A program made the position numbers and the translations under genes. A stretch of DNA of 64,000 bases from Rhodospirillales bacterium (GTDB lineage Bacteria; Pseudomonadota; Alphaproteobacteria; Kiloniellales; CBDCUY01): the NCBI GenBank assembly GCA_965222795.1, contig OZ244972.1:492286-556285 (forward strand). Direction: 5' to 3'. This document shows positions 8,869-41,495 of the stretch, piece by piece. Below the pieces are notes generated by a model that saw only the letters and a program-made list of their open reading frames with translations, searched no databases and was not told the DNA's origin. How positions within the stretch are numbered: the stretch's first letter is position 1; each line of letters starts with the position of its first letter.

Positions 8869-9138
8869 AGGCGCGAGCCAAACACGTCCCTCCGCCCTCT
8901 TTTCGACGATTACTTCGGCCGCATTGCGCCCTCCCTGCAAGCGATTCAAACCAGTAAATCACTGCAAAAAGATGCACACAAATTGCCAGAAAACCCGCGC
9001 CAGTGAGCCAGAGCCTTGTTATCAAGGTCGCAGGCAAATGATAAATTTCTATAGGCGTTCAACAGGTTGTGAATTTTTTACGGCAGTTAATTTGGATGAA
9101 GTGGCTACCCCTGCCTACCTGGTGATGTAGCTGACTGG

Positions 9139-9669
9139 TTAGGTGTCACCAAGTAGCGCCAACTCCCGGGCGTAGCGTTTCCAATTCTCAACATAGTGCC
9201 GGGCGCTGGCCGTGTTGGAGGCGATTTCCTCGTCACTGAGTGAGCGCACGATCTTGCCCGGCAAGCCCATCACTAAAGAACCATCAGGTATCTCCTTGCC
9301 CTCCGGGACGAGGCAGCGGGCGGCAATCAAACAATTGCGGCCAACCCTCGCGCCGTTCAGGATGACCGCACCGATACCGATCAAACTGTTGTCACCAATG
9401 GTACAGCCGTGCAGCATGACTTGGTGGCCGACCGTCACGTCCCGACCCAGCGTCAAGGGATATCCCTCGTCAGCATGAAAGACAGAACCATCTTGGACAT
9501 TGGACCCTTCGCCGATCACGATGGGCTCAATGTCGCCGCGCAACACCGCCTGCCACCAGACACTTGCATTGCGATGCAACTCGACCTTTCCGATGATCGT
9601 GGCATTGGGAGCGATCCAACAATTGGCGTCCGACATCCGTGGACGGTCCTGACCCAAGGCATACTGCAT
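9139..9669 (-). CDS. Gamma-carbonic-anhydrase-like / hexapeptide-repeat (LbH) protein (YrdA/PaaY family)
   Basis: Left-handed beta-helix repeats (..[70 protein letters not shown]..). I chose the start at MQYALG (9669). The ORF extends to 9750. Confidence 0.8.
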
Positions 9670-9775
9670 AAGGTTGGCTCCTTCGATTCGATGACCTCTA
9701 AATCGGCGCAGGTTGTCAGAGTGGCCTGTCCAGGTCAAAAGCTGCGGCACAAACCAAAACGACCTGGTGTATTGC

Positions 9776-9851
9776 TAGTGTGGTGGATCTGAAGTTCGTA
9801 TGATTATCGGGGCGCCAAATGAAACGAACTTCAGATCCGAAAACCACACTA
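9776..9851. repeat. Hairpin element A (76 nt, imperfect palindrome)
   Basis: TAGTGTGG pairs with CCACACTA (8 bp). GGATCTGAAGTTCGT pairs with ACGAACTTCAGATCC (15 bp perfect). 24-nt loop. Preceded by TTGCTAGTG. Confidence 0.8.
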
Positions 9852-9865
9852 AATTCAACAAGTTG

Positions 9866-9940
9866 CTAGTGTCCTTGTCGATCCCGAAATTCGGTCGAGC
9901 GCGCCGCAAAATTGCGCGAATTTCGGAATCGGGACACTAG
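9866..9940. repeat. Hairpin element B (75 nt), a diverged copy of element A
   Basis: CTAGTGTCC pairs with GGACACTAG (9 bp). CGATCCCGAAATTCG pairs with CGAATTTCGGAATCG (14/15). 23-nt loop. Preceded by the same TTGCTAGTG. Confidence 0.8.
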
Positions 9941-10190
9941 ATCAGTCTTCGAATTTTCGCTAGAAGAGATGCCATCGAGGATTCGAATGGCTTGACCTCG
10001 TTGACCCTTGCGTGCTGTCACCACCAAATGATTGTCGAGTGTCAAAACGTCCTTGCTTCATTCAAAGGAATCATGGGCAGAATCTGCGGGTCCATGTAAG
10101 CCGTGCCGATTTCCTACGTAACTTGAAATCAGAGGGAAGATATCTCGACTGCCCCGCGTATCGACTTCGGGCACCCGGTTGGCCTAAGTC

Positions 10191-13100
10191 ATGATACGTC
10201 CGACTATGCGGCTCATCATCGAAGTCCTGGCCGCCATGGCTGTCGGTGTCATCGTCCTCGCCGGCATTGCCATTTGGCGTCTTTCCAGTGGCCCGGTCGA
10301 GGTCAATTTTCTAACCCCTGCCATCGAAGCGGCTCTCTCCGATCCCGCCATGGGCCTCGAGGTCGATGTCGGCCGCACGGTGGTCGCCTGGGAAGGCTGG
10401 CCAAGAACCTTTGACACCTACGCAGAGGACGTCGAGCTGCGGCTTGAGGGTTCCGAAGGCTTGACGACGGCCACCCTGCCAAAGGTCGCCGTCACCTTCA
10501 GCTTGCGTGCCCTGTTGCAAGGCCTGTTCGCGCCCACGGTAATCGAGATCTTTGGTGCTCAGGTCTCTGCGCTGCGGACAGCGGAGGGGCGCCTGCGTTT
10601 CGGCGGCGGGCCAGGAGTGGACGGTGCCGGCACGGACGACGATTTCTCCCAGTGGCCGGCAATCCTTCTTCGCGTGCTGGCAGGCGAGCGGGGTCAAGGA
10701 CATCCATTTTCCTACCTGAACATTCTACGCGTTCGTCAAGGTCGCGTTCTTTTGACCGACGAGGGCCTAGACCTATCCTTAGAGACGGTAGCCAAGGACT
10801 TGGAGGTCCGTCGCGACCAGGAGGGCATCACGGGAAAGCTTCTGCTCAGCCTTGCGGCGGAAGAGCAAACCGCTAGGTTTCGGGCAACATTTCGCCATGC
10901 AAGGGAAAGCCAGCAGACCAATCTCACTCTTTCCTTTGCAAAACTTTCGCCAGCCGTGGTGCAGACGGTCGTTCCTGAGTGGACCTTTCTTGCCGGGATA
11001 AGAACGGCTTTCACCGGATCCTTCGACATCACGCTACGAGATCAGGGCGAGCGCGTGACAATCGACTTTCAGGCAGCGGGTGGACCGGGGACTCTGGCAT
11101 TTGACGGAGTCCTTCCCGTCGCCCATGCTTTCACCGCACTCACCTTGCAAGGACATTATGACAGTCAGGTCAAGCGGCTCGATCTTTCGAAACTACGCCT
11201 TGACCTAGGAGAGGACGGGAGGACGGGGCCCCGGCTTGATGCGAAAGCTGGCCTGGAGATTCTTGAAGGCGCCCTCGCGATTTCCGGCGAGGCAGCCGCG
11301 ACCGAAGTCCCGCTGGACGACCTTGCCTCCTACTGGCCGGAAGATCTGGCGCCCAAGGCAAGACGTTGGGTTGTCCCGAATATTCGCACCGGCATCGCCG
11401 AAGAGGCCCGCCTCAAATTGCGCGCCGGCATCTCAGCCGAAGATCCCTCGGACATCCGGTTGCACGAACTGAGCGGCAGTCTTGTCTATAGGGATCTTGA
11501 CGTTCACTACCTGCGGCCTCTGCCGCCGGTCAATGGCGTGGTGGGTAGCGGGTCATTCGATAACAGTTCGCTGCGCCTATCGGTCGAGAGCGGTGAACTG
11601 GGTGACATCGCCGTTGGCCCGACACAGGTCGATATCCTGGCGGTGGATACAAAGGAGCCCAAAATCGATATTGCGCTGCAAGCCCAGGGGCCCTTTCGCG
11701 ATATTCTGGAACTCTTGGATCACCAGGAGCTAGGTTTGATCACGGCGCTCGGTCAAGACCCGACGAATGCGCGTGGGACAGCGGAGGTGAGCGTCGGCTT
11801 TCGTTTTCCCTTGAAAGAGGATCTCGCATTCGATGATGTCGAGGTCAAAGCCGATGCCAATCTTACCGCGACAACCATGGCCCAGGTCTTGCTTGGGCGG
11901 GACCTCTATAGCAACAACCTCGCTCTAGTCGTTAGTAACCGCGGCCTTCAGATAACCGGGCCTGTAGAATTCGACCAGGCGTTTGCGACGATCGATTGGT
12001 ACCGATCTTTCCTTCGGAACGAGCCCATCAAGCGACGCATAACGCTTTCGAGCTTTGAAGTGAACGATCAGGCTCGCCGCAATCTCGGCATCAACACGGG
12101 ACCGCTGAAGCTGGCCGGTTTGGTGAAGGGTGAGGCCGAGATCACCCAGTGGCAAGACGGCAACCTGAAGGCAGACGTGGCCCTGGAGCTTTCGGAAACC
12201 GGCTTCGAACTTCGGCAACCTGCCTGGCGAAAGGCGATTGGCCAACCAGGTCGAGCGGCATTCAGCCTTCACGCAATCGGAGATGAAGTAACAAGAATAG
12301 ATCCTTTCGACGCCGATATCGGCGACCTGCAAACCCACGGTGTCATCGAATTCGGCGCCGCTGCCAAGGCGGACACCGTCTCGCTTTCACGGCTTCGATT
12401 CTCCCGAAACGATTTGCAAGAGGTGGACATTCGGTTGAATGGCGATGTGGTATCGATCTCTATCGGCGGCGGCGAGCTCGACATCGAGCCATTCTGGGGC
12501 TTTGGCGAACCCTCGGAGAAAACGCCAGGCGAGGCTGAAACAGACGGAGACGCGCGCAGCATTGACCTAACAACCGGCAGGTTGGATCTAATCCGACTGT
12601 CCGAGAATCATTTCCTGGAAAAGGCTTCCATCGCCCTGCAGCGCGAAGGCCCTGGCCTCATTTACTTCGGCGCCCGCGGAGAGGTTCCCAGAAACTTTTG
12701 GCTTCCGTCGGAAGACCCAACCGAAGAGGCTGACCTCTCAGTTCCAGCGAAAAGATTCACGGTCACCTATTATGCCGATGAGGTCGGGCCGTCGCAGCTT
12801 TCGGCGGAAGCCGATGACATTGGCGCATTGCTGCGCGCCTTGGGTATGGTCGAAACGGTGGCAGGCGGTCGCCTTCAAATCGATAGTGCCCGCACTGGCG
12901 AGGAAAATGATCAGCCGTTCCGCGGGCGTATCGATGTGCGCGATTTTGTCCTGACCGAGGCACCCAACCTGGCGCGCTTGCTGACCATCGCCTCTCTTTC
13001 CGGCCTCGTTGACCTTCTCGGTGGCGCCGGAATTCGCTTTGATCAGCTGGTCGGCGACTTCACACTGACGGAAGGGATCCTTGCAAGCGATCTACTGCGT

Positions 13101-13433
13101 GCCTATGGCAACGCCCTCGGCCTGACTGCCGAAGGACAAATCGACCTCGACAGCCTTGAAGCGGACATTGCCGGCACGCTGGTGCCGGCCTATTCGATCA
13201 ATCGCGTCCTCGGCAACATACCGCTGCTCGGCCCGGTTCTGACTGGCGGCGAAGGCCAAGGGGTTGTCGCAGTCACCTACGGCATCGCGGGAGATCTTCG
13301 AGAACCAAAGTTTTCGGTCAATCCCCTTTCAGCCCTAGCGCCCGGCTTTCTCCGGGCCCTATTCGGTATTTTCGACGGCGAGGCACCGAACCCCGAGACC
13401 CTAAAGACCTTTCCTGAAGAACAAGGGCGCTAG
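10191..13433 (+). CDS. Large AsmA-family / YhdP-like (DUF3971-type) envelope protein
   Basis: 1080 aa with an N-terminal TM anchor (LIIEVLAAMAVGVIVLAGIAIW) and a long beta-rich body. C-terminal signature ..LGNIPLLGPVLTGGEGQGVVAVTYGIAGDLREPKFSVNPLSALAPGFLRALF.. is typical of AsmA/TamB/YhdP-like proteins. Confidence 0.7.
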   Translation: MIRPTMRLIIEVLAAMAVGVIVLAGIAIWRLSSGPVEVNFLTPAIEAALSDPAMGLEVDVGRTVVAWEGWPRTFDTYAEDVELRLEGSEGLTTATLPKVAVTFSLRALLQGLFAPTVIEIFGAQVSALRTAEGRLRFGGGPGVDGAGTDDDFSQWPAILLRVLAGERGQGHPFSYLNILRVRQGRVLLTDEGLDLSLETVAKDLEVRRDQEGITGKLLLSLAAEEQTARFRATFRHARESQQTNLTLSFAKLSPAVVQTVVPEWTFLAGIRTAFTGSFDITLRDQGERVTIDFQAAGGPGTLAFDGVLPVAHAFTALTLQGHYDSQVKRLDLSKLRLDLGEDGRTGPRLDAKAGLEILEGALAISGEAAATEVPLDDLASYWPEDLAPKARRWVVPNIRTGIAEEARLKLRAGISAEDPSDIRLHELSGSLVYRDLDVHYLRPLPPVNGVVGSGSFDNSSLRLSVESGELGDIAVGPTQVDILAVDTKEPKIDIALQAQGPFRDILELLDHQELGLITALGQDPTNARGTAEVSVGFRFPLKEDLAFDDVEVKADANLTATTMAQVLLGRDLYSNNLALVVSNRGLQITGPVEFDQAFATIDWYRSFLRNEPIKRRITLSSFEVNDQARRNLGINTGPLKLAGLVKGEAEITQWQDGNLKADVALELSETGFELRQPAWRKAIGQPGRAAFSLHAIGDEVTRIDPFDADIGDLQTHGVIEFGAAAKADTVSLSRLRFSRNDLQEVDIRLNGDVVSISIGGGELDIEPFWGFGEPSEKTPGEAETDGDARSIDLTTGRLDLIRLSENHFLEKASIALQREGPGLIYFGARGEVPRNFWLPSEDPTEEADLSVPAKRFTVTYYADEVGPSQLSAEADDIGALLRALGMVETVAGGRLQIDSARTGEENDQPFRGRIDVRDFVLTEAPNLARLLTIASLSGLVDLLGGAGIRFDQLVGDFTLTEGILASDLLRAYGNALGLTAEGQIDLDSLEADIAGTLVPAYSINRVLGNIPLLGPVLTGGEGQGVVAVTYGIAGDLREPKFSVNPLSALAPGFLRALFGIFDGEAPNPETLKTFPEEQGR

Positions 13434-14478
13434 AGTCTGTCATGTTTAGATAGAAGCATATCCTGCGTTTCTGAAGTAGTTTTGGCATTCGCTGGGTTTG
13501 ATGGTTTGGATGAGCTGGCCGATTTTTCGCCAGGTTTCTTCGATGCTTCGCTTTTGTGCCCTTCGCATCCAATGTTTGATTTTGGCGAATGTCTGTTCGA
13601 TTGGGTTCATGTCGGGCGAATAGGGCGGCAGGAACCACAGGCGCGCGCCGGCCCGCTTGATCAGGTTGCGGATGATCTTGGCTTTGTGGCTGCCCAGATT
13701 GTCCATGATGACGATGTCGCCAGGCTTCAAGCTCGGCATGAGGATCTGTTCCACATAGGCTTGGAATGCCACGCCGTTAATGGGACCGTCGAGGACACAG
13801 GGCGCCGTCAAGGCATCACAGCGCAAGGCGGCGATGAAGGTCATGGTTCGCCAATGGCCATGCGGCGCATAGCCCTTCAGGCGTTGACCTTTGGGGCTCC
13901 AGCCTCGGATCGGGGCCATGTTGGTCTTGATCCAGGTTTCATCAATGAAAACCAATCTCCTGGGATCCAGGCTTGGCATGAAGCTCTTCCAGCGTCGCCG
14001 TCTGCGCGCCACATCGGCACGTGCTTGTTCAAAGGCGAAGAGTGTTTTTTTTGAAGCTTAGTCCCTCGCGGCGCAAAAAGCTCCAAACCGCATGATGCGA
14101 GACCGACACGCCGCGCGCCGCCAGGATCGCCTGTAGGCCGCGCACCGTCAGGTGCGGCGTGGTATTTATTGCCGTGATAATAACATCACGATGGGGTGCC
14201 AGAAGGACCTTGCGGTGGCCACCCATCTTGCCCGGCAAAACGCTGCCTGTCGCGCGGTAGCGCTGATGCCACTTCACGACAGACGACACCGCAACCCCAA
14301 AACGCTCCGCAACCGACCGTGTCGGCGCACCCGAAACCACCGCATCCACAACCCGCTGTCTCAGGTCAATCGAATAAGGCTTGGCCATGCATCCTGCCTC
14401 CTATAGCCAGAAGGATGCTTGAAGCACAGTTCAGCCAAAAAAGATATCACCCCGATTCTATCAAAGCATGACCCGCTC
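13433..14478 (-). mobile_element. IS630-family insertion sequence (about 1046 bp) flanked by a TA target duplication
   Basis: Imperfect terminal inverted repeats GAGTCTGTCATGTTTAGATAGAA (13433-13455) and reverse-complement GAGCGGGTCATGCTTTGATAGAA (14456-14478), about 17/23 identical. TA at 13431-13432 and at 14479-14480. Encodes an HTH plus DDE transposase. Confidence 0.85.
13446..14388 (-). CDS. IS630-family DDE transposase, split between two frames at an A8 tract (ORF-A 14029..14388; ORF-B opens at 14057 and ends at 13446)
   Basis: ORF-A carries the HTH (..RSVAERFGVAVSSVVKWHQRY..). ORF-B carries D..D-x34-E (FIDETW; IVIMDNLGSH; PYSPDMNPIEQ). The frames meet in TTC-AAAAAAAA-C (14045-14052). 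Removing one A gives a continuous ..GLSFKKKTLFAFEQARADVARRRRRW.. protein. Confidence 0.85.
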
Positions 14479-14528
14479 TAGCGCTAGGCGGTGGCTTCGA
14501 GAAATGCTCTTCGGGGAAAGTCCCCGCC

Positions 14529-30188: not shown

Positions 30189-31695
30189 AGGTTTTTCCTC
30201 CGATCCTCGTGTTCAAAGTAGTCGCCTCGCAGGCGCTATTCAATCGATCTTCCGCAAGGTCGCGGAATTTCGGATTTCAGTCATAGGGTTAGCGGCGGCC
30301 GCCACGCTCGTCGGCTGTGCCGGTGACGAGCCCAGCGGCAGGGTGGCGGTGGTCGCGGGTTTCGCCGGCTTGGTGGCCGCCGACGAACCGCGCGCGGCCC
30401 TGGTCGGGCGTGACGTTCTGGGCAATGGCGGCACGGCGGCCGACGCCGCGGTGGCCATTGCCTTTGCCATGAGCGTGACGCTGCCCTCCCGCGCCGGTCT
30501 CGCCAGTCAGGGAGTCTGCGTCACCTATAAGGGCGAGGCGCGCCAGGGCCTGGCTATCCCGTTTTTCGTTGATGGCCAAGGTCCGATCTTGACCCTGCCG
30601 CGCGCCATGGCCCTTCTCCATGCGCGATACGGCAACCTGCCATGGGAATATCTCGTGGCTCCGGCAGAACAGCTTGCGCGCTTTGGCCATGTGATCAGCC
30701 GCGCCTTGGCGGTGGACATCGCCGCCCTTGGCCCGTCACTTGGCACCGGGACAGACCTGGAAGCCTTCCTTACGTCGCAACAAGGCAAGCCCTTGCAATT
30801 AGGCGACAAATTGACGCAAGCCGAGCTCTCCGCTGTGCTCACGGGGATCCGCGCTCAAGGGGCCGGCTATGCATATAGCAGCCTTTTCGCCACGCGCTTT
30901 GCTAGTGCTGCCACGGCGGCTGGTGCACCGGTTCAGGTCGAGGCACTGCGCGGTTATCGGGTCGAACAGGTTGCGGCGGCTGAAGCCCCCTTCGGCCTGC
31001 ACATCGCCTACTTCGCCCCGGCGCCCAGCGGTGGCGAGCGTGCCGCCAAGCTCTGGAGTGAACTCGTCGAAGACGGGGATTACGACGATCTCGCGGCACC
31101 GGCGAGGGCAAGGCTGTTACTCGACGTGGGCGCGGAGGCGCTGGGCCGGCAGATAGAGCCCGCGACGCCGGTTGCGAGTTTTGTCGTCGGGGATCGCTGG
31201 GGCAATGCGGTCGCCTGCGGCATGACTTTGAACGACCTCTTCGGCCAACGTCGCCTGGCCGAAGGAACCGGCATTATCTTACCGGCGCCGCCGCCGGCGG
31301 CCGGTCATGAAACCCGCTGGATCGCACCTGTCATCGTCGCCAATAGCAACAACGGTTTTCTACCTCTGGCCGGGGTAGCCAGCGGCGGCCCAGCCGGTAT
31401 CGCAAGCCTGGTCGACGCCATGGTCGCCATCGCCGAGGACGAGCGCCCGCTGCCCGATGTGACCACCGAGCCTCGCTTCTACTATGGAGAGTCCTTGGGC
31501 TGGGTCGTCCACGAACCCAACCTGGAGACGGGGATCCGCGAGACACTGCTCGGGCAAGGCCTGCACCTAAGGGAACGCTCGTCGCTCGGGCGGATAAACA
31601 TCATTTCCTGCCCCAAGGGCCTGCGTGAAGGCAAGCAATCCTGCGTGGTGGCCGCCGATCCGCGTTTTCATGGATTGGCCAAAGTGGTGCAATAA
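30181..31695 (+). CDS. Gamma-glutamyltransferase-family lipoprotein (start uncertain; nucleophile Thr apparently absent)
   Basis: GGT-like N-terminal (..GLVAADEPRAALVGRDVLGNGGTAADAAVA..) and C-terminal (..FVVGDRWGNAVACGMTLNDLFG....GTGIIL..) blocks. Lipobox LVGC. In-frame start candidates are ATG 30067 (121-nt overlap with the divergent gene) or TTG 30181. Confidence 0.6.
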   Translation: MRKGFSSDPRVQSSRLAGAIQSIFRKVAEFRISVIGLAAAATLVGCAGDEPSGRVAVVAGFAGLVAADEPRAALVGRDVLGNGGTAADAAVAIAFAMSVTLPSRAGLASQGVCVTYKGEARQGLAIPFFVDGQGPILTLPRAMALLHARYGNLPWEYLVAPAEQLARFGHVISRALAVDIAALGPSLGTGTDLEAFLTSQQGKPLQLGDKLTQAELSAVLTGIRAQGAGYAYSSLFATRFASAATAAGAPVQVEALRGYRVEQVAAAEAPFGLHIAYFAPAPSGGERAAKLWSELVEDGDYDDLAAPARARLLLDVGAEALGRQIEPATPVASFVVGDRWGNAVACGMTLNDLFGQRRLAEGTGIILPAPPPAAGHETRWIAPVIVANSNNGFLPLAGVASGGPAGIASLVDAMVAIAEDERPLPDVTTEPRFYYGESLGWVVHEPNLETGIRETLLGQGLHLRERSSLGRINIISCPKGLREGKQSCVVAADPRFHGLAKVVQ

Positions 31696-40348: not shown

Positions 40349-41495
40349 ATGCGTGCCGAATTCGAAGCCCTCGCAGCCAACATTCGCCAATCGCTTGAGC
40401 TCTTGCGGAGGCATCTTTGACTTAGAGGCTGCCCAGCGCCGCCTCGATGAACTGAACAGCCTGGCCGGTGACCCGGATCTTTGGGAAGATCCGACCGCGG
40501 CCGAAAAACTGATGCGTGAACGTACACGGCTGGATCAGGCAATCGCCGAGTTTCAAGAGCTTCAGTCGGGCCTTGACGATGCCCTGGTCCTCATGGAACT
40601 CGGCGAAGCGGAGGAAGATGCCAAATCCATTGAGGAGGCCCATGCACAGCTAGTCGCCCTCGATCGGCGGGGCACGCAGCTGCAACTGGATAGTCTTCTT
40701 TCTGGTGAGGCGGACGAAAACGACTGCTATCTGGAAATACACGCAGGTGCCGGCGGCACCGAGGCCCAGGACTGGGCGGAAATGCTCGCGCGCATGTACA
40801 CCCGTTGGGCCGAACGGCGTAGTTTCAAGGTCGATTGGTTAGAAGAAAGCCCCGGCGAGGAGGCCGGTCTGAAGTCCGCGACCATGAAGGTAGAGGGCCA
40901 CAACGCTTATGGCTGGCTGAAGACCGAGTCCGGCGTACATCGCCTGGTGCGCATCTCGCCCTTCGACTCACAGTCGCGACGCCACACCAGCTTTGCTAGT
41001 GTATGGGTCTATCCCGTGATCGATGAAGAAATCACCGTAGAGGTGCAAGACAAGGATCTAAGGGTCGACACCTACCGCGCCTCCGGAGCCGGCGGACAGC
41101 ATGTCAACAAAACCGATAGCGCCATACGCATCACCCACCTTCCCACGGGAATAGTCGTTCAATGCCAAAATGACCGCTCGCAGCACCGAAACCGCGCCCA
41201 GGCCATGGACATGTTGCGCGCCCGCCTCTACGAGACAGAGTTGCAAAAACGGGAAGCGGAGGCCCAGGCCGAGGCGGATGCCAAGACCGATATCGGCTGG
41301 GGCCATCAAATCCGTTCCTATGTCCTGCAGCCCTATCAGATGGTGAAGGATTTGCGCACCGGTGTGGAAAAGGGCAACGCCCAAGCCGTCCTGGACGGCA
41401 ACATCGACGATTACCTAGAGGCCGCCCTGGCGCAGCGCATTGACGGTGGCAATGCAGCCGGTCAGCGTTCAGATTCCGAAAGTCCCATCGACTAG
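40349..41495 (+). CDS. prfB: Peptide chain release factor 2, expressed via a programmed +1 frameshift: join(40349..40417,40419..41495)
   Basis: Frame 0 reads [23 protein letters not shown] then TGA at 40418. The +1 frame continues [13 protein letters not shown]... and contains SPF and GGQ ([16 protein letters not shown]). Confidence 0.95.
40407..40421 (+). promoter_or_regulatory. RF2 autoregulatory +1 frameshift site
   Basis: GGAGG-CAT-CTT-TGA-C: an internal SD-like element 3 nt upstream of the CTT slippery codon, followed by an in-frame TGA C. Same layout as E. coli AGGGGG-TAT-CTT-TGA-C. Confidence 0.9.

Follow-up and report, generated by a model that had tools for sequence, protein, structure and literature searches.

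The genes that bound the region studied here, a gamma-carbonic-anhydrase-like gene (ATG at 9670, minus strand) and a YhdP/AsmA-like gene (start at 10191), are divergent and separated by a 520-bp intergenic region within a 64-kb window (the whole stretch of DNA that was analysed). Two strong imperfect palindromes lie in this region (h1 and h2, Table 1), in agreement with a preliminary description of the locus. The architecture given there, an outer stem, a bulge, an inner stem and a loop, was recovered with dimensions of 9 bp, 4 nt, 15 bp and 23-26 nt, and the two inner stems do differ from each other in the compensated way described there. The outer stems pair TAGTGTGGT with ACCACACTA and CTAGTGTCC with GGACACTAG. 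An inverted-repeat search returned the outer stems as 9 bp at 100% and two further repeats of 21 nt at 90% and 15 nt at 93%; the inner stem of h2 contains one C·A mismatch. The 4-nt bulge of h1 is located 3′ and that of h2 5′, so that both bulges face the linker; the two hairpins are thus arranged symmetrically on either side of it and do not form a simple direct tandem. The predicted RNA folds have energies of -40.5 (h1) and -36.2 (h2) kcal/mol, with z scores of -9.5 and -4.6 against dinucleotide shuffles, and the predicted DNA folds have energies of -23.4 (h1) and -23.1 (h2) kcal/mol, with z scores of -8.3 and -5.6 against shuffles. Both hairpins fold far more strongly than shuffles whichever strand is read. 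A scan for sigma-70 promoters and terminators gave no match within the element.

Table 1. Coordinates of the double-hairpin element, its parts and the open reading frames of an insertion sequence (IS) in the same window (a point marks features without a strand)
Feature	Position	Strand	Remarks
Whole composite element with both flanking CTAGs	9775..9940	.	Family profile match, model positions 1-165, 136.9 bits
Element proper, 160 bp (GTGTGG...GGGACAC)	9778-9937		
Left target TA copy (inside CTAG 9775-9778)	9776..9777	.	Single CTAG at the empty site of relative L001; family flanks
Right target TA copy (inside CTAG 9937-9940)	9938..9939	.	Single CTAG at the empty site of relative L001; family flanks
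Hairpin h1 (family hairpin B)	9776..9851	.	Outer stem 9 bp, inner stem 15 bp, loop 26 nt; GAAA bulge facing the linker
Linker AATTCAACAAGTTGC, 15 nt	9852..9866	.	Conserved in composites; family consensus GAATCATAAACTTGC on the same strand; quasi-palindromic; IHF-site-like
Hairpin h2 (family hairpin A)	9867..9939	.	Outer stem 9 bp, inner stem 15 bp, loop 23 nt; TTGT bulge facing the linker
h1 outer arm with subterminal TATGATTATC	9776..9812	+	Matches an IS630-family IS terminus, best on the transposase-start side, with a slight margin over the stop side
h2 outer arm	9902..9940	-	Matches the stop-codon-side terminus of an IS630-family IS
GAATC	9926..9930	.	Sole remaining GANTC (CcrM methylation) site in the window copy
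orfA-like HTH ORF of the window IS	14029-14388	-	
DDE ORF of the window IS	13446-14012	-	Contains PPYSPDMNPIEQ

The same intergenic region was compared with that of the closest sequenced relative (L001), an ENA contig that has the same gene order and carries a cluster mate of the gamma-carbonic-anhydrase-like protein at 89% amino acid identity. The intergenic region of L001 is 334 bp long. Its flanks are ~85% identical to those of the window as read from the alignment (79% as the mean column identity across the alignment), and precisely the block 9779-9940 is missing. L001 reads GTATTG-CTAG-ATCGGTC with one CTAG, and the window reads GTATTG-CTAG-TGTGG…GGGACA-CTAG-ATCAGTC. This exact absence indicates that the two hairpins were gained or lost together with the 15-nt linker, as a single unit between the copies of the duplicated CTAG/TA. 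The comparison also separates two sequences that the preliminary description had taken as one repeated feature, the TTGCTAGTG preceding both hairpins: the first TTG is host flank and is present at the empty site of L001, and the second TTGC is the conserved end of the linker. The family profile described below has no match in 20.5 kb of the contig of the relative. An ISL3-family transposase gene at L001 18817-20040 is unrelated to the element. For more distant relatives, at 69-71% amino acid identity, synteny is lost, and the comparison is a single empty/filled pair with no outgroup. Excision in the relative would thus also be compatible with the data; insertion in the window lineage is the direction that we infer.

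Searches of the 64-kb window, including one with the family profile, found no further copy of the element. Other TTGCTAGTG matches, at 30899-30907 and 40993-41002, are in regions that look coding by reading and have no palindromic partner; judged by these features they are not elements. A pattern made of the positions common to all four arms was searched in a collection of species-representative genomes and matched at least 120 loci, against ~30 chance matches estimated for the whole collection. Among the matches listed, the hosts are almost all Alphaproteobacteria, including Bradyrhizobium, Mesorhizobium, Hyphomicrobium, Xanthobacteraceae, Devosia and Hoeflea of the Hyphomicrobiales, as well as Caulobacterales, Parvularculaceae, Hyphomonadaceae, Micropepsales/Rhizomicrobium and Rhodospirillales. 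A family copy is present in Caulobacter ginsengisoli and other Caulobacteraceae. Nearly every hairpin is one half of a composite of the form CTAGTGT-hairpin-ACACTAG·CAAnnnnTGnnTT·CTAGTGT-hairpin-ACACTAG, with arms of 23-27 nt, 25-nt loops and a linker of 13-15 nt. The two hairpins of the window are thus different halves of one ~165-bp composite rather than two tandem copies of one element; in the family structure, h1 corresponds to helices 3-4 and h2 to helices 1-2.

A family profile built from 33 composites was searched in 121 sequences and gave at least 140 sites, exactly one of them in the window. About 112 are full composites, and the remainder are solo hairpins or are cut by contig ends. 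The window element was aligned column by column with 98 other composites. The flanks of the copies are mutually unrelated beyond a C at -1 and a G at +1 (each in 32 of 33 composites). Several copies occur per genome; within a genome they are up to 97.6% identical (median about 0.86), and the median between genomes is 0.63. No protein family recurs next to the copies within 2.5 kb of element sites, where the largest ORF clusters are ABC transporter, TctC and SDR paralogues. The copies are intergenic and occur in tandem, divergent and convergent contexts, and their orientation with respect to genes shows no significant bias (28 vs. 18); these assignments are from crude GC3-based gene calls, and their counts are coarse, the caller having miscalled the context of the window itself.

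Outside the elements, the sequence CTAGTGT hardly occurs: the 917 kb of fetched loci contain 7 orphan sites. Abutting elements are frequent and have exactly one CTAG in common. Head-to-tail arrays of two or three elements with one CTAG per junction are present at L110 4100-4599 (three elements in a row), L058 3425-3752, L024 198-528 and L120 6011-6244. CTAG itself is strongly depleted: the window has 80 sites where ~231 are expected, and 895 kb of flanking DNA (L002-L121) have 0.47 per kb. Each element brings three to four CTAGs and would thereby offer a preferred landing site for further copies. The 165-nt consensus had no match in PLSDB by blastn at E ≤ 1e-3. Weaker arm matches in PLSDB are found in Roseomonas, Bradyrhizobium sp. 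CB82, Rhizobium gallicum chromids and Sinorhizobium, on large replicons and in some records at two places; these probably represent further copies or related IS ends.

The target site was analysed using cleanly delimited composites, 63 of 73 of which are flanked by C…G. The non-canonical flanks are those of L114 (G-TA…TA-A), L053, L044 and L113 (…TA-C), L105 (…TA-A) and L051 (G-TA…). In these copies the inner TA-GTGT…ACAC-TA is kept and a single outer base is changed. As judged from the flanks, TA is the duplicated sequence and the target is NTAN, with CTAG strongly and symmetrically preferred. A 4-bp CTAG duplication of the IS5-like type was rejected, as it would alter the inner base too, which the non-canonical flanks do not show. 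The palindromic, double-stranded target favours a DDE transposase over the one-sided single-stranded target of HUH enzymes.

A relaxed blastn search of PLSDB with a 31-nt arm matched 21 of 22 terminal nucleotides at the end of an annotated IS630-family transposase gene in Komagataeibacter oboediens pKOB2 (WP_275877819.1). The pKOB2 IS is 1,155 bp long, bounded by C-TA-GTGTCCCGATTCTGAAGTT… and …AACTTCTCGATCAGGACAC-TA-G, and has 35-nt terminal inverted repeats (TIRs) of 80% complementarity. Its product of 366 residues contains DDE_3 and HTH domains, and the terminal TA together with the flanking base makes up the TAG stop codon. The IS subfamily comprises at least 7,981 proteins at E ≤ 1e-80, many of them on ~1,158-bp contigs. 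Four more members, whose proteins are 77-83% identical in amino acid sequence to that of pKOB2, share these termini and carry the TAG stop at the tip. Termini of this cognate type read TAGTGTCC. When the family profile was searched against the five IS loci, it matched exactly the IS ends in 5 of 5 (E = 6.5e-5 to 5e-3). The outer arm of h1 agrees with the start-side end of the IS copy L126 at 29 of 38 positions (shuffles: mean 20.6, maximum 26), and the outer arm of h2 agrees with the stop-side end of L126 at 29 of 38. Over the five IS copies, the outer arm of h2 scores 29, 25, 27, 27 and 26 of 38 against the stop side vs. 23, 22, 24, 24 and 25 against the start side. For the outer arm of h1 with TATGATTATC, the start-side end is the best match, marginally. 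The element and the IS870/IS630-family IS (IS870 of Agrobacterium vitis and the pKOB2 copy) share the terminal sequence TA-GTGTCC[CT]GAT..GAAGTT, insertion at CTAG with TA duplication, and GANTC on the stop side. According to the account of IS870 in PMC13630536, citing Fournier et al. 1993, its CTAG target is needed to supply the stop codon. Unlike the full-length IS, the element has no transposase and possesses inverted partner arms and a conserved linker.

Neither the window nor the 917 kb of fetched loci yielded a cognate transposase or an IS with TAGTGT termini, and a search of the same 917 kb for long elements with the termini of the element returned the 7 orphan CTAGTGT sites and no IS ends. 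The window does contain another IS630-family IS at 13431-14481 (~1.05 kb; ORFs in Table 1), with 29-nt TIRs that start with TA followed by GAGTCTGTCATG. It sits at the CTAG from which the YhdP-like gene takes its TAG stop codon, and it is absent from L001, in which ~50 bp separate YhdP from a RidA-like gene. This IS was rejected as the cognate since its termini are unlike the hairpin arms, and it is a cousin.

[quoted passage not shown] Window positions 9775-9940 very probably hold one copy of a ~165-bp non-autonomous MITE from an IS870-type IS630-family IS, in line with one proposal of the preliminary description, a miniature palindromic mobile element with CTAG-type ends, to which the empty site, the TA duplication and the cognate IS termini can now be added. 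The element would consist of two fold-back modules joined by the conserved 13-15-nt linker, and in each module ~25 nt would lie between an IS terminus and the inverted copy of that terminus. The outermost arms would act as the functional TIRs. A DDE transposase encoded elsewhere would bind these arms, excise the element and insert it at the TA within a CTAG, with duplication of that TA, and in this way the whole unit would have reached its present place in the divergent promoter region of the gamma-carbonic-anhydrase-like and YhdP/AsmA-like genes. Because no cognate transposase was found in the window, we infer mobilization in trans by such an enzyme.

The preliminary description had also proposed that pairing was maintained while the sequence drifted, and this was confirmed at the level of the family. 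RNAalifold on the 99 aligned composites predicted two hairpins with 42 pairs, of which 33 show double compensatory changes. In a controlled count, 97.3% of cells are paired vs. 82.3% in shuffles, and the observed value was reached in 0 of 500 shuffles. Cells with double changes number 630 vs. 177 in shuffles, and sliding the partner leaves pairing in 19-46% of cells only. Pairing is strictly Watson-Crick, with G·U intermediates almost absent from the family stems, and the rare stem mismatches are strand-symmetric (G·T 12 vs. A·C 15). This pattern is that of a DNA palindrome and argues against an RNA transcribed from a single strand. In the full-length IS, neither terminus has an inverted partner beside it, and the two ends are only ~80% alike. 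In the MITE, the partner arm of each terminus is ~97% complementary through lineage-specific changes, and the linker is also conserved. Transposase binding alone does not account for the arm-to-arm complementarity or the conserved linker. One candidate cause of the kept complementarity is palindrome-templated correction during replication, which would be neutral and which the preliminary description had named as well. The other candidate is selection on the fold-back DNA form, perhaps aided by an IHF-type bend.

There is a small chance that the double hairpin is a selected design kept across alphaproteobacterial orders, beyond a pair of decayed IS ends. An IS630-type DDE transposase might need or exploit extruded fold-back DNA, with the linker bent by IHF, for the synapsis of ends only ~160 bp from each other; alternatively, the host might have recruited the CcrM sites to tie local expression or transposition to the cell cycle. 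The control of IS10 by Dam offers an analogy for such cell-cycle coupling. If the design were selected, the Watson-Crick covariation would represent selection on DNA secondary structure, which is not a known requirement of IS630-family transposition.

The CcrM sites bear on a related explanation, in which the element is a host-recruited protein-binding module, with CcrM sites, an IHF-like bend and cruciform-prone palindromes, that regulates divergent genes or organizes the nucleoid, its mobile origin being secondary. GANTC occurs 2.17 times per element vs. 0.29 times per 165 bp of flanking DNA (~7.5-fold) and is concentrated at three fixed alignment columns, one in each stem arm of hairpin A and the third in the linker; its variable N is a covarying stem position. 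The linker matches WATCAANNNNTTR with at most one mismatch in 17 of 33 copies, as against 1.4% of shuffles, and architecture and sequence are conserved over several alphaproteobacterial orders. In addition, a link to CcrM regulation has been proposed for the CIR repeats in the account given in PMC2229807. These points favour recruitment by the host. However, the same linker search matched 14 of 33 copies on the other strand, and with a near-equal match on both strands of a quasi-palindrome, the IHF-like site is a putative lead only. Descent from the stop-side IS terminus accounts for the fixed GANTC sites: this terminus carries GANTC in 5 of 5 IS, where it encodes Glu-Ser of the …SESGH* C-terminus of the transposase; the start-side termini have GATCG in its place in 5 of 5. 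The window copy has lost the linker GANTC and all others but one, which by this comparison would likewise be inherited from the stop-side terminus, and the relative lacks the element at the orthologous site altogether. Recruitment as a host module is therefore improbable.

The two opposed palindromic units around an IHF-like linker also resemble the BIME-1/RIP (REP-IHF-REP) elements of Escherichia coli, in which two palindromic units in opposite orientation flank an IHF-type linker. A REP/BIME- or REPIN-like element would transpose in the form of single-stranded DNA hairpins through the action of an HUH tyrosine transposase (RAYT or IS200/IS605-like) and would lie beside a CTA/TA target with no true duplication. 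Bulged imperfect palindromes with strict pairing are what enzymes recognizing single-stranded DNA use, and a TA duplication reads the same in sequence as a target TA next to an element ending in TA. However, the target is palindromic and symmetric, with C at -1 and G at +1 each in ~90% of copies, no Y1-transposase-like or other gene recurs in the 2.5-kb flanks, and the arms match the ends of a DDE IS. REPs are 20-40 bp long, tagged with GTAG (or CGTC) and linked to RAYT tyrosine transposases (PMC3733652), whereas the tag here is CTAG at both ends. Of the REP/BIME-like reading in the preliminary description, the architectural analogy stands, and transposition by an HUH enzyme is highly unlikely.

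A structured RNA pair transcribed from the divergent region with its fold under selection (an sRNA, a 5′-UTR element or processing/stability hairpins), which had been suggested as well, is barely credible: the very stable predicted RNA hairpins, the strong covariation and the reported effects of Correia and ERIC MITEs on mRNA processing if co-transcribed (PMC10969869) are outweighed by the near absence of G·U and the strand-symmetric mismatches, unlike RNA families, by the occurrence in all gene-orientation contexts with no significant bias in the crude gene calls, by the empty orthologous site of the close relative, by the identity of the arms as IS termini, and by an Rfam covariance-model scan of 9000-11000 at E ≤ 10 that returned miRNA-hairpin noise only (best 24.8 bits vs. 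a gathering score of 74).

Among known repeats, the element resembles the CcrM-associated intergenic repeats CIR1-4 of Caulobacter (Chen & Shapiro 2003, via Delihas 2008). As described in that review (PMC2229807), the CIRs consist of two arms and a linker, have TA termini, are strictly intergenic and occur throughout the alpha-proteobacteria, and the mechanism of their mobility is given as unexplained. By the same description, the element shares with them an Alphaproteobacteria-wide, intergenic distribution, a length of >100 bp, two inverted repeats with a linker, GANTC sites, TA termini and the lack of ORFs; of these features, the GANTC sites are the one by which the CIRs are defined. The CIRs are described as ~110 bp long with GANTC at or in the terminal loop, whereas the element is ~165 bp long with GANTC in the stem arms and the linker. 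The element is of the same kind and, as far as the review description goes, may be one of CIR1-4.

The Correia/nemis repeats of Neisseria are MITEs of 100-155 bp with ~24-bp TIRs, a TA duplication, a central IHF site and a long fold-back transcript (PMC2229807 Table 1; PMC10969869). They resemble the element as TA-duplicating MITEs with an IHF or IHF-like centre and a fold-back form. However, a Correia repeat is a single fold-back made from its two ends, whereas the element has two local hairpins and a linker; the two are unrelated in sequence and in host clade, and Correia has no established cognate IS. The differences from BIME-1/RIP are the arms, which are DDE-IS termini, and the CTAG tag. 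[quoted passage not shown] The likeness consists in palindromic intergenic repeats of roughly 100 bp in an alphaproteobacterium. The family profile had no match in 47.8 kb of Brucella DNA. The repeat downstream of bp26, which we take to be Bru-RS1, is part of this DNA. Identity with Bru-RS was rejected, since the repeat downstream of bp26 has a different sequence, with GANTC in its loop.

That repeat is an instance of a second, unrelated two-hairpin repeat of Alphaproteobacteria, which reads GATTAGAGCGCG…GAATC…GCGCTCTAATC and then GCGCATCTTTTCCGAAAACC…TTTTCGGGATGCG. It was observed at L122 10821-10935, L085 5133-5167 and L086 1727-1761, and also in L043, L066, L118 and L119. Its second hairpin recurs in several fetched loci, twice directly adjoining the element studied here. 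This second repeat is probably of the Bru-RS/CIR type.

As a copy of the MITE family, the conspicuous 166-bp structure of the window is explained as a lineage-specific insertion in a divergent promoter region. The element is ordinary selfish DNA, the presence of which differs between close relatives, and not an RNA gene; in annotation it should be masked as a repeat. For the family, a pan-alphaproteobacterial double-hairpin repeat bearing CcrM sites is tied to a concrete parent, an IS870-type IS630-family IS, and to an insertion rule, the TA within CTAG. Its GANTC sites are accounted for as inherited from the end of the IS that encodes the transposase C-terminus. If the element is a CIR, the mobility of these repeats, described as unexplained in the 2008 review, would gain a testable mechanism.
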